A DNA stretch of 64,000 nucleotides, from positions 672,001-736,000 of the forward strand of contig CAVYJM010000006.1 in the NCBI GenBank assembly GCA_963768855.1, written 5' to 3'. This stretch comes from an uncultured Thermoplasmata archaeon. Lineage in GTDB: Archaea > Thermoplasmatota > Thermoplasmata > RBG-16-68-12. The notes under the pieces were generated by a model. The model saw only the letters and a list, made by a program, of their open reading frames with translations. It did no database searches and was not told the DNA's origin. The translations under genes and the position numbers were made by a program. Positions 30,465 through 32,828 of this stretch are shown here, in pieces; the stretch's first letter is position 1, and each line of letters starts with the position of its first letter.

Positions 30465-31007
30465 TCACGGACGACTCGCGAGGACGAGGTCGACGAGGCG
30501 GCGGAACGCATCCTCGACGCCGGCGCCCGTCTTCGCGCTCGTGAACGACCAGCTCGACCCGCGCTGCCTGCAGTACGCGTCGATCGTCTCGGCCTCGAGC
30601 TGCCGGCCCGCATCGAGGTCGGCCTTGTTTGCGACCACGTACGTGGGGACGCTCCCGGCGACCGTCCGGATCGAGTGGGACCAGGCGTCCAGCTCCCGGA
30701 GCGTCTCCCGACGAGTCACGTCGGCCACGCCCAGGATGCCTTGCGCGCCGTGATAGTACGCCTCCTTGAGCAGGTCCCGCAGGGTCGGGGCGCCCATGAT
30801 GTCCCACAGGATCAGGCTGACGTCCAGCGGCTCGCCCGTCCGCGGGTCCTTGGCCGCCACGTTCCGCTTCGTGATCTTCGTGCCGAGGGTCGCGGTGTAC
30901 CGGTCCTCGTACTCATCGAGGACATAGCGGCGGATGAGGGACGTCTTCCCGACCATCGCCTCGCCGGCCATGCAGATCTTGAGCTTCACGACCTCCGGCG
31001 CCGTCAT
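30465..31007 (-). CDS. Rab/Ras-like small GTPase
   Basis: G1 GEAMVGKT, G2 ATLGT, G3 WDIMG, YYHGAQG, G4 NKAD, G5 SAK. 180 aa, no C-terminal cysteines. Confidence 0.92.
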   Translation of the reverse strand: MTAPEVVKLKICMAGEAMVGKTSLIRRYVLDEYEDRYTATLGTKITKRNVAAKDPRTGEPLDVSLILWDIMGAPTLRDLLKEAYYHGAQGILGVADVTRRETLRELDAWSHSIRTVAGSVPTYVVANKADLDAGRQLEAETIDAYCRQRGSSWSFTSAKTGAGVEDAFRRLVDLVLASRP

Positions 31008-31315
31008 CCCTCGCTCACCTCGCCCTGCCGCCGCGCGGAGTCCGCCTGCCCGGTCTCGCCCCGCATCCGATGCAGCTTCTCCTTGAAGAACCACGCCCCC
31101 GGATAATCGGGGTCGAGCCGCAGGACTCGCTCGAGGATCACGAGCCCCTCGTCCGCGTGGCCGTCCTGGACGCGGAGGGCGGCGAGCACGAAGAGTGCGT
31201 CGACGTCCTGCGCGTTCTTCGCGAGCGCCTCGCGCACGAGGACGTCGGTCGGGGGCCGCGTCAGCGGAGGGGGTCCATCGTCCGGTCCATCCTTCGCCCC
31301 GCCCATCCCGATCAT
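31004..31315 (-). CDS. small TPR protein
   Basis: DVDALFVLAAL...GLVILERVLRLDPDYPGAWFFKEKL...A. Stop overlaps the GTPase start. Confidence 0.8.
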   Translation of the reverse strand: MIGMGGAKDGPDDGPPPLTRPPTDVLVREALAKNAQDVDALFVLAALRVQDGHADEGLVILERVLRLDPDYPGAWFFKEKLHRMRGETGQADSARRQGEVSEG

Positions 31316-31412
31316 TCTCCTCCCCGGGTTCGGCCGCGGAGGATCCGGAGGCTAGTTAAAGGTTCGGGGACTCGGCTCGGAGCGGATCCCGGTCCGGGCC
31401 GCATCCATCCGG

Positions 31413-32828
31413 TCATGCGAGCTGCACCCTCCAGGGCGAGCGGAACTCGCCGCCGAGCAGACGGGTGAGCGCCTCGTCGACTCCGTCGAGGCGGCGCATG
31501 CTGCCGTCCCACGACAGGAGGGCGTCCCAGTGGCGCGCCTCGATGGCGCGGGTCGCCGCGAGCATCTCCGGGATCAGGTACTCCACGTCCCCGCGCGAGG
31601 CGACCGCCGCGAGGATCGTCAGCTCCCCCCGCACGACGGCGGCCCGTCGATGGCCGAACGCGACCGCGTCGAGGGACGCCTCGCGGCGGAACGAGTCTCG
31701 CACGAACTCTTGGATCGCGACGAACATCGAGGCCACGATGTCATCGTCCTTGTGGACCTCCGCGGTGCGGCCGACGTGGCGGATCAGGACGCCGCCCTTC
31801 GTCATCAGGAACACCTCATCGATGATGATCTTCCGCTGGCCCATGTAGAGCAGGATCACCAGGGTCGCGAGGATCGCCACGAGGCCGATCGCGGCGCCCG
31901 CGATCAGGTTCGGCGTCGAGAGGACGCTGGCCTGGACGACGTAGAGCGGCCCGGACAGCGCCTCGATGGGGCCGATCGCGTGGCCGTTGAAGTCCTCGTA
32001 CGTGATGACGACCCGGATCCCGACCACGGAGCCCGCGGTCAGGTTCTCCGCCACGATGGCCCGGAGGTTCACCCCGAGCTGCGCACCGGGAGGCACGGCC
32101 GGGAACATCGTCGTGAGGTTCACGAGCCCCTGGCCCGGACGCAGGCCGGGGTCGAGCTCGATCGTCACCCGGACGTTGAACGCGGTCCCCGTGCCGTTGG
32201 CGTCCACGGGCAGGTCAGGCGTCGCCTCGTTCGTTGCGTTGATCCAGAACTGGACGATGTCCCCCGCGCGGGCCGACTCGGACGGCTGGGAATCGACGTC
32301 GACGATCCGGACGATCGACCCGGCGATCCATACGCTCGAGTTCGCACGGTCGTCCACGATGCCCGAGGGGGTTCCCGAGGCGGTCACCGCCTGGACGCGC
32401 TGGAACCGCCCCACCGACGCGTTGCCTGGCGCGTACGCGGGGACGTCCCAGACGTAGCTACCCGCCCGGACGCCGGCACACTCCCAGCGGAGGTCCCATC
32501 CCGAGGCGAACGTGATCGCGCAGCCGGCCGGCTGGGTCCAGCCCCCGGGACCCTGGACGAGTCCGTTGTCGTTCGGGTCCGCGGCCGTGTCGAAGCTGAC
32601 GTTCAGCCAGGTCTGCTGGAACTGGCCGTTCCCGGTCACGTTCAGCCAGACCGTGAAGTTGAGATGGTCCCCGCGGCCGACGACCGACCGGTCCGCGGTG
32701 ATGTTGACGGCCGCGCTCGGGGCGCTCGCCGCGACCGGGAACGATGCGGGCGCGGGATGGCCCGGCGTGGCCGCGAGGAACACGAGCGCCGTGAGCCCCA
32801 GAAGGAGCAGCCTCCGCGACCGCAGCAT
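31413..32828 (-). CDS. single-pass membrane protein: extracellular Ig-like domains plus cytoplasmic longin/roadblock-like domain
   Basis: GGAGGT SD before ATG 32828, signal peptide, two beta-sandwich-like segments with N-x-S/T sites, TM helix (IAGAAIGLVAILATLVILLY), then IDEVFLMTKGGVLI...DDDIVASMFVAIQEFVRDSF... Confidence 0.75.
   Translation of the reverse strand: MLRSRRLLLLGLTALVFLAATPGHPAPASFPVAASAPSAAVNITADRSVVGRGDHLNFTVWLNVTGNGQFQQTWLNVSFDTAADPNDNGLVQGPGGWTQPAGCAITFASGWDLRWECAGVRAGSYVWDVPAYAPGNASVGRFQRVQAVTASGTPSGIVDDRANSSVWIAGSIVRIVDVDSQPSESARAGDIVQFWINATNEATPDLPVDANGTGTAFNVRVTIELDPGLRPGQGLVNLTTMFPAVPPGAQLGVNLRAIVAENLTAGSVVGIRVVITYEDFNGHAIGPIEALSGPLYVVQASVLSTPNLIAGAAIGLVAILATLVILLYMGQRKIIIDEVFLMTKGGVLIRHVGRTAEVHKDDDIVASMFVAIQEFVRDSFRREASLDAVAFGHRRAAVVRGELTILAAVASRGDVEYLIPEMLAATRAIEARHWDALLSWDGSMRRLDGVDEALTRLLGGEFRSPWRVQLA

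Follow-up and report, generated by a model that had tools for sequence, protein, structure and literature searches.

Does the cytoplasmic domain of an archaeal surface protein dock and regulate a small GTPase that is encoded two genes downstream of it? This question is raised by a three-gene cassette in the window, the whole 64,000-nucleotide stretch of DNA that was analyzed, which corresponds to positions 672001–736000 on contig C6 of a 2.87-Mb, 24-contig genome from a Thermoplasmata archaeon of soil or wetland. The three genes lie in one orientation on the minus strand and encode a receptor-like surface glycoprotein of 471 amino acids (aa) (P0001, positions 31413–32828; supported by its open reading frame [ORF], translation, homologs, and a structure model), a tetratricopeptide repeat (TPR) protein of 103 aa (P0002, 31004–31315), and a Rab-like, Rup-type small GTPase of 180 aa (P0003, 30465–31007). 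Feature coordinates given without a contig name are positions in the window, on the minus strand. The original prediction for this locus had described three co-oriented genes, the third overlapping the stop codon of the TPR gene, together with a 97-nt gap containing a TTTAA tract between the first two. The ORFs, the overlap of the TPR stop codon with the GTPase initiation codon (ATGA, 4 nt, 31004–31007), and the spacer with its tract (31316–31412) were all read directly at these positions. The spacer also contains a Shine-Dalgarno-like GGAGGAG run just 5' of the TPR ATG, and its length in three orthologous loci is 25, 46, and 165 nt. With moderate confidence, we read this locus as encoding a membrane-tethered longin platform that would dock and regulate the co-encoded Rab-like GTPase, with the small TPR protein (mini-TPR) as a third subunit, in a variant of the bacterial Rup1 arrangement.

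The region of the receptor on which this reading turns is its juxtamembrane cytoplasmic domain (residues 335–471, positions 31416–31826), hereafter the tail, which is the best conserved part of the protein. No usable match emerged when Pfam, NCBIfam, and PDB sequences were searched with the tail. A structure model of the tail alone, based on an alignment of 51 sequences (pLDDT of 85, pTM of 0.79), showed a five-stranded antiparallel sheet, had its elements arranged as beta-beta-alpha-beta-beta-beta-alpha-alpha, and lacked a helix N-terminal to the first strand; it was longin-type in structure along its full length. All strong Foldseek matches of the tail were longin or roadblock proteins with GTPase partners; they included Ccz1 of the Mon1-Ccz1-Ypt7 complex (E value of 3.8e-5) as well as sigma-adaptins, the TRAPP subunits Bet5 and Trs23, LAMTOR, and MglB. 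The original prediction had assigned a longin or roadblock fold to the cytoplasmic domain and had proposed a Foldseek comparison of this C-terminal region; the top matches were indeed all of these two kinds, and the AlphaFold2 (AF2) model bore out the assignment as longin-type.

Sequence profiles gave faint signals for both kinds of domain. P0001 had no match to a longin Pfam model above the gathering threshold, and among the 51 family members one showed a faint match to Fuz_longin_1 (E value of 0.004) and one to Intu_longin_1 (0.07). P0001 likewise had no match to Roadblock/LC7 (PF03259), and its model lacks the N-terminal helix of the roadblock arrangement (alpha-beta-beta-alpha-beta-beta-beta); Robl_LC7 was detected weakly in three of the 51 members (best E value of 0.008), and one paralog scored 20 bits, which is under the cut-off. 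Roadblock structures aligned to the tail over only approximately 101 residues. A roadblock GTPase-activating protein (GAP) of the MglB type was considered as the family of the tail and was rejected for its poor fit to the order of helices and the type of partner GTPase. As judged from the model, the tail fold is of the longin rather than the roadblock type.

The remainder of P0001 has the features of a single-pass surface protein. The start of the protein at MLRSRR was backed by the alignment of orthologs, and an AF2 model of the receptor built on 27 orthologs (pLDDT of 81) consisted of an N-terminal signal helix, two beta-sandwiches (residues 38–298), a transmembrane (TM) helix (305–333), and the alpha/beta tail (335–471). 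The signal peptide region covers approximately residues 1–24 (positions 32757–32828), with the cleavage position being approximate, and is marked by an Arg-rich N-terminus and by a hydrophobic helix at residues 2–19 of the model. In Foldseek searches, the fast-evolving ectodomain (31917–32756) matched tandem sandwiches of the immunoglobulin (Ig) or fibronectin type III (FnIII) type, such as integrin alpha legs, RbmA, and cohesin-FnIII. A hydropathy scan detected one TM segment, at residues 308–326, and together with the model it places a single TM helix at approximately residues 305–330 (31839–31916), followed by Gln-Arg-Lys on the cytoplasmic side. The signal peptide, Ig-like ectodomains, and one TM helix of the original prediction are thus agreed on by the model, the hydropathy scan, and Foldseek. 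Given that all 10 N-x-S/T sequons lie in the ectodomain, that the tail contains no Asn, and that Gln-Arg-Lys follows the TM helix, the tail is cytoplasmic.

Across 26 orthologs, mean identity was 42% for the ectodomain versus 63% for the tail, and in the most distant orthologs the corresponding values were 26–30% and 52–57%, a contrast consistent with a protein whose outer part is variable and whose inner part is constrained. The receptor has 98 homologs, the named ones being proteins of Thermoplasmata metagenome-assembled genomes (MAGs). P0001 itself is not named by any Pfam or NCBIfam model, and a Pfam scan did not find an OmpA domain in it. The receptor is predicted to be a single-pass, N-glycosylated surface protein with an outward-facing ectodomain and a longin-fold domain directly under the membrane.

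The tail is not restricted to this receptor. An exhaustive HMMER search recovered approximately 1750 representative clusters at an E value of ≤1e-3. The domain is mostly C-terminal, in proteins of 130 to 2600 aa whose N-terminal parts are surface repeats (DUF11, CARDB, PKD, CarboxypepD_reg), and open frames ending in the tail reach approximately 7000 aa; this genome alone contains 17 ORFs with the domain. A feature search of the ESM Atlas returned leads below threshold only (scores of ≤0.85), and the structural neighbors of the tail in the Atlas included receiver-domain (Response_reg) fusions and large bacterial OmpA clusters. Three proteins from other metagenomes (P0134, P0101, P0111) have odd architectures around the domain: one carries a RING-type zinc finger just before it, and the others have two or three tail copies per protein, with DUF5915 near the C-terminus. 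In the literature, no paper was found that describes this Thermoplasmatota family. The tail represents a large, membrane-tethered longin-fold family for which there is no matching Pfam model.

The partner proposed for the tail, P0003, is a small GTPase within the Ras superfamily, given its match to Pfam Ras (E value of 3.9e-28, 98.5 bits) and its possession of motifs G1 to G5: the G1 P-loop GEAMVGKT (residues 15–22, 30942–30965), T40 of switch I, the G3 motif DIMG (DIMGA, residues 69–73, 30789–30803), NKAD of G4, and SAK of G5. Its best match among PDB sequences was a Thorarchaeota Rab (7ezb, 6e-22), followed by Rab18, Rab2, Rab32, and Rab6, so that by this measure it is closer to Rab than to the other branches of the superfamily, and its relatives are labeled "Rab family GTPase" at NCBI. 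The protein ends in LVLASRP, and thus has no C-terminal Cys prenylation motif; none of the 22 aligned orthologs has a Cys in the C-terminal tail either. The catalytic Gln of G3 was also not found, the motif being WDIMGA in P0003 and WDIMG[T/A] in all aligned orthologs, and the position of Ras Gly12 is occupied by Ala. The description of P0003 in the original prediction as a Rab-like GTPase with all five G motifs therefore needs refinement: the five motifs are present and the top PDB matches are Rabs, but the Ras Gln61 position in G3 is Ala (Thr or Ala in aligned orthologs) and the C-terminal Cys and catalytic Gln of a canonical Rab are lacking. On these sequence features, P0003 is Rab-like rather than a true Rab.

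The absence of the catalytic Gln and the presence of Ala at the Gly12 position suggest that intrinsic GTP hydrolysis by P0003 is probably slow, in which case its nucleotide state should depend on partners. This genome contains 19 genes for Ras/Rab-type GTPases, and among paralogs with a recognizable G3 the Gln61 position is Q, E, H, S, A, or N. Some of these genes form tandem arrays of two or three, as at C7:106360-108254 and C12:41691-42915. A 2016 study (PMC4915359) reported Rab-like genes, as single copies, in Thermoplasmatales and Aciduliprofundum, and a Rab-like GTPase in a non-Asgard archaeon is thus already known and not new per se.

Is the association between the tail and the GTPase more than a matter of position in one genome? 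The linkage of the three genes in relatives, on which the original prediction depended, held in orthologs down to 37% receptor identity: the order receptor-TPR-GTPase and the 4-nt overlap are retained at receptor identities of 49, 40, and 37%. In addition, at least 30 clusters of receptor and GTPase homologs were inferred, from matching sizes of the longest source contig, to share contigs. The genes that flank the cassette (for SRP54, DUF7121, SHMT, AdoMet synthetase, and HTH-CBS) are collinear in the same three relatives, as would be expected if the three genes were neighbors through lineage collinearity alone and had no functional link; DUF7121, moreover, is near-universal, being present in 285 of 301 genomes of the phylum. 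We disfavor this explanation as highly improbable, given that the 4-nt overlap of the TPR and GTPase genes is present in all orthologs examined and that pairs of a tail gene with a GTPase or a TPR gene are seen again at unrelated loci, in distinct groups of genes, and in a second domain of life, as described below. One assembly, GCA_030157145.1, contains two diverged copies of the SRP54-DUF7121-cassette-SHMT-MAT arrangement on different contigs (L017 and L020, with 49 and 40% receptor identity, respectively), which suggests that it is a mixed bin of two related organisms.

Linkage away from the orthologous position came from loci that were collected with the tail alone. We surveyed the best 80 loci identified by the conserved tail motif, all of them in Thermoplasmatota MAGs. 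A Rab-like GTPase gene was located within 5 kb in 19 of these loci, and the expectation at the GTPase density of this genome was approximately four GTPase genes in all. The GTPase gene was directly adjacent to the tail gene in 14 of the 19 loci; it lay downstream in the same orientation in 11, and the two genes were convergent in 2 and divergent in 1. These tail-adjacent GTPases form their own supported clade, with a conserved C-terminal extension of approximately 100 aa, and the clade reaches DHVE2 archaea. In the GTPase tree, P0003 was sister (100/94) to GTPases encoded approximately 0.5 kb from another tail gene.

Of two further tail genes with GTPase genes nearby in this genome, one is positioned 50 nt upstream of its GTPase gene and the other is 2.2 kb from two such genes. 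The second pair, at C6:748095-750069 on the plus strand, approximately 12 kb past the end of the window, comprises a 359-aa frame ending in the tail and then a Rab-like GTPase. In this GTPase the G3 Gln is present and approximately 100 aa of conserved, helical sequence extend the C-terminus; its subtype directly adjoins tail genes in many Thermoplasmatota lineages, including DHVE2.

The two families also occur in the same genomes. Among 301 Thermoplasmatota genomes, the tail was present in 42, a Ras-type GTPase (E value of ≤1e-15) in 45, and both in 41. At the level of families, Thermoplasmatota had both or neither, with one family having exactly one of each, on different contigs. This distribution is supportive of a partnership, and the extent to which relatedness may contribute to it is weighed below.

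A further line of evidence comes from bacteria. A tblastn search of plasmids with P0003 identified five loci annotated as "Rab family GTPase" in Nostoc, Mesorhizobium, and Rhizobium. In all four of the loci examined, the gene directly upstream of the GTPase gene encodes an OmpA-family protein with the tail domain, which abuts a single TM helix in each; the tail profile matched these bacterial partners with hidden Markov model E values of 1e-22 to 1e-32 and with an hhalign value of 98.3%. A gene for a coiled-coil hypothetical protein precedes the OmpA/longin gene in Nostoc flagelliforme plasmid pNFSY07 and Mesorhizobium plasmid pWSM1497, and 3' of the GTPase gene lie an ATP-binding (kinase-like) gene in the former and an adenylate/guanylate cyclase gene in the latter. 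The neighborhood of Group 1 Rup GTPases was described in 2014, by comparative genomics alone (Wuichet and Sogaard-Andersen, PMC4316618), and, as far as gene content indicates, the bacterial loci match it, including the coiled-coil and output genes. The bacterial Rup1 proteins in our loci likewise lack the G3 Gln, an absence noted in the same paper (PMC4316618).

The archaeal cassette combines the same two features, a GTPase without the G3 Gln and, beside it, a membrane protein with a domain abutting its TM helix. Judging by the description in PMC4316618, the domain left unnamed in the Group 1 Rup system is probably the same as the tail, and our literature search found no paper that gives the Rup1 partner domain a longin fold. 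Other parts of the Group 1 system, namely the coiled-coil partner, an output gene (kinase, cyclase, or c-di-GMP enzyme), and the OmpA domain, were not found in the cassette. The divergent upstream coiled-coil gene for DUF7121 was considered for the role of a Rup1-type coiled-coil partner and was rejected as unspecific, given its near-universal presence in the phylum. In the GTPase tree, which is small and in which the bacterial Rup1 sequences sit on long branches and are placed with uncertainty, the archaeal GTPases form clades apart from the sampled Rup1 sequences; loss of the G3 Gln in the archaeal lineage was thus probably independent. Taken across Thermoplasmatota and bacteria, the pairing of tail and GTPase probably represents an old, putative membrane-to-GTPase module.

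The second gene of the cassette encodes a TPR protein, as originally proposed: P0002 scored above the cut-off of Pfam TPR_14 (E value of 1.5e-5, 25.7 bits versus 23.5) and remained under the cut-offs of the other Pfam TPR models. It consists of a variable, Pro-rich N-terminus and a conserved core of approximately 70 aa containing only about two repeats, and this core is 52–66% identical in orthologs whose receptors are merely 37–49% identical. Homologs with the same signature are encoded directly 3' of tail genes of approximately 190 aa at six other MAG loci (L075, L078, L082, L083, L087, and L089), with a spacing of approximately 30–90 nt and no GTPase gene within 5 kb. In the genome studied here, a TPR paralog ORF (phmmer E value of 1e-8 to P0002) starts 5 nt from a divergent Rab-like GTPase gene (C21:67418-68411). 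With mini-TPR genes linked to tail genes as well as to GTPase genes, the TPR protein is associated with the tail no less than with the GTPase. An apparent fusion of a receptor tail with a TPR protein, P0060, was discounted, since it occurs on a single contig of 1427 bp at 0.46x coverage and hinges on a 1-nt deletion just before the stop codon.

The six tail-TPR loci without a nearby GTPase gene bear on a different explanation, in which the tail is a general juxtamembrane oligomerization or TPR-binding module that makes no contact with the GTPase; adjacency of the genes would then reflect co-regulation only, with the GTPase working elsewhere in the same pathway. The position of most tail genes away from GTPase genes, as well as the weak pass in the complex prediction described below, would also fit such a module. 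We nevertheless consider it quite improbable. Direct adjacency of tail and GTPase genes without a TPR gene recurs in many archaeal loci and in bacteria, the phyletic overlap amounts to 41 of 42 genomes, and this class of fold typically contacts GTPases directly.

To gain insight into the contact itself, we predicted the structure of a complex of two tails with the GTPase, thereby covering two of the three components for which the original prediction had suggested multimer modeling. The outcome was a weak pass, with a score of 0.37 versus 0.02 for the best of three controls. The runs agreed in at least 68% of contacts, and the pLDDT of the partner was at least 77. Of 80 solved complexes, 58 reached the mark that we applied, as did 2 of 110 mismatched pairs; at scores of ≤0.60, it was reached by only 7 of the 80 solved complexes and by both of these mismatches. 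Given that solved longin-Rab complexes exist, the pass may reflect likeness to them.

On the basis of the fold, the recurrent linkage, and the bacterial counterpart, we propose that a single membrane-proximal small-GTPase module is encoded by the three genes and that it is an archaeal, receptor-fused relative of the bacterial Group 1 Rup system. The Rab-like GTPase encoded with it would dock on the tail and be regulated there, as Rab and Arf GTPases are by the longin domains of Mon1-Ccz1, Fuzzy-Inturned, TRAPP, and SRX-SRbeta. The mini-TPR protein, being translationally coupled to the GTPase and belonging to a family that follows tail genes, would be the third subunit, most likely a tail-bound adaptor. 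In our reading, clustering of the receptor or a rearrangement induced by a ligand would then change how the tail holds the GTPase. With regard to the biochemical role of the tail, nucleotide exchange or capture of the GTP-bound state, either as a guanine nucleotide exchange factor (GEF) or as a platform, is a tentative possibility; a role as a GAP seems unlikely, and a purely passive anchor would be a poor candidate.

Several points weigh against this proposal. Only 2 of the 17 tail genes in this genome adjoin a GTPase gene, and approximately three quarters of the surveyed tail loci have no GTPase gene within 5 kb, which implies that most tails either use unlinked GTPases or do something else. 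Given that the flanking genes are collinear as well, synteny among orthologs is by itself weak evidence, and the phyletic co-occurrence, observed among kin, may partly reflect shared ancestry or genome size. The fold assignment depends on predicted structures, the longin fold is found also in proteins that do not contact a GTPase, such as the SNARE longins, and the complex prediction provides weak, solely in silico support for binding of the tail to the GTPase. Finally, given the 97-nt spacer and its TATA-like tract, the TPR and GTPase genes could have a transcript of their own.

The numerical excess of tails over linked GTPases would also be expected if the module worked from the inside out. 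The tail would then be a sorting, positioning, or anchoring tag, with the GTPases and TPR adaptors organizing the placement, clustering, or turnover of these glycoproteins and of giant, adhesin-like proteins, and the ectodomain would sense nothing; small GTPases that steer adhesion complexes or coat adaptors offer a comparison. Consistent with such a function, the same tail ends very different proteins with DUF11, CARDB, PKD, or CarboxypepD_reg repeats, which look adhesin- or envelope-like rather than like sensors, and many of its structural matches are longin subunits of coat adaptors (sigma-adaptins, zeta-COP). The Response_reg-tail fusions in the Atlas, on the other hand, suggest a signaling output domain, and a tail-GTPase contact is needed in this scheme as well, so that it differs from regulation by a membrane-tethered platform in direction only. 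We consider an inside-out function rather unlikely.

Between the DUF7121 and SRP54 genes that flank the cassette lies a TnpB-like ORF (33804–35090) with a Cas12f1-like TNB domain (E value of 1.8e-19), in a stretch of lower G+C content (0.61). No similarly sized gene is present there in the three orthologous loci, which gives the ORF the appearance of a local insertion.

Longin and roadblock domains are recurring platforms for the control of Rab, Arf, and Rag GTPases in eukaryotes, and their pairing with Ras-type GTPases is usually told as a story that leads from Asgard archaea to eukaryotes. The cassette belongs to a longin-fold family, unmatched in Pfam, that is tied both genetically and phyletically to Rab-like GTPases in a non-Asgard archaeal phylum. 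Were the predicted contact real, the uncharacterized Rup GTPases would gain a concrete candidate regulator, the longin-GTPase partnership would date from much earlier, and the tail, mini-TPR, and GTPase would provide a compact system for the biochemistry of an ancestral Rab regulator. A wider scheme, which we put forward as conjecture and think may well claim too much, is that the partnership of longin domains with Rab/Ras GTPases originated neither in Asgard archaea nor in eukaryotes but is an old prokaryotic invention, shared by Rup1 and Thermoplasmatota, that has grown here into a transmembrane receptor-to-small-GTPase network, in which dozens of surface, seven-transmembrane, and receiver inputs share one longin output that sets the nucleotide state of GTPases with the help of mini-TPR adaptors. 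If true, such a network would be a prokaryotic analogue of receptor-coupled G-protein signaling.

How does the cassette compare with known systems? The tri-longin Rab GEFs (Fuzzy-Inturned for Rab23, Mon1-Ccz1 for Rab7/Ypt7) and TRAPP are related to the tail in sequence only through one weak Pfam match. The tri-longin GEFs are soluble heterodimers of triple-longin proteins, whereas here a single longin domain is tethered to a TM helix and a GEF role is hypothetical. Longin or roadblock domains hold a small GTPase at a membrane also in the pair of the SRX domain of SRalpha with SRbeta and in Ragulator-Rag; the GTPase has the membrane anchor in the former, contact is made between roadblock domains in the latter, and neither has an extracellular domain.

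Roadblock/LC7 systems offer a prokaryotic likeness. MglA-MglB of Myxococcus and Thermus also pairs a small GTPase with a domain of the longin/roadblock superfamily, but MglB is soluble, forms a roadblock dimer, has an N-terminal helix, and partners GTPases of the MglA type, whereas the tail has no N-terminal helix, follows the longin order of helices, and accompanies a Ras/Rab-type GTPase. This genome has seven Roadblock/LC7 matches above the Pfam cut-off, and at C6:941711-942856 on the minus strand an MglA-like GTPase gene (weak Ras match) lies beside two Roadblock/LC7 genes, separate from the longin-tail modules. Roadblock, longin, and GTPase sets of Asgard archaea have been studied structurally, and small GTPase genes of MK-D1 are generally outside operons with roadblock, longin, or TRAPPC3 genes (PMC10933270).

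The actinobacterial conservon (CvnA-D) has been proposed as a prokaryotic system resembling G protein–coupled receptors (PMC13343842, PMC4316618). Its resemblance to the cassette lies in the joint encoding of a small GTPase with a membrane sensor and a roadblock-type protein. It consists of a histidine-kinase-like sensor, a separate roadblock polypeptide, a DUF742 protein, and an MglA-type GTPase, whereas the present locus has the putative sensor and longin domain in one chain and no kinase; Pfam scans of the three proteins did not find conservon components.

The bacterial Rup1 system shares with the cassette a Ras/Rab-like GTPase that lacks the G3 Gln and is encoded right after a membrane protein with the same juxtamembrane domain, and both are putative systems, proposed to serve membrane signaling. 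The two differ in architecture: in the archaeal receptor, a glycosylated Ig-like ectodomain and then the TM helix come before the domain, whereas in the bacterial proteins the domain precedes both the TM helix and a periplasmic OmpA/BON part. A mini-TPR gene here takes the place of the coiled-coil partner and the kinase or cyclase output gene, the archaeal GTPases stand apart from the sampled Rup1 sequences in clades of their own, and the tail family is heavily expanded, with its 17 copies in this one genome.

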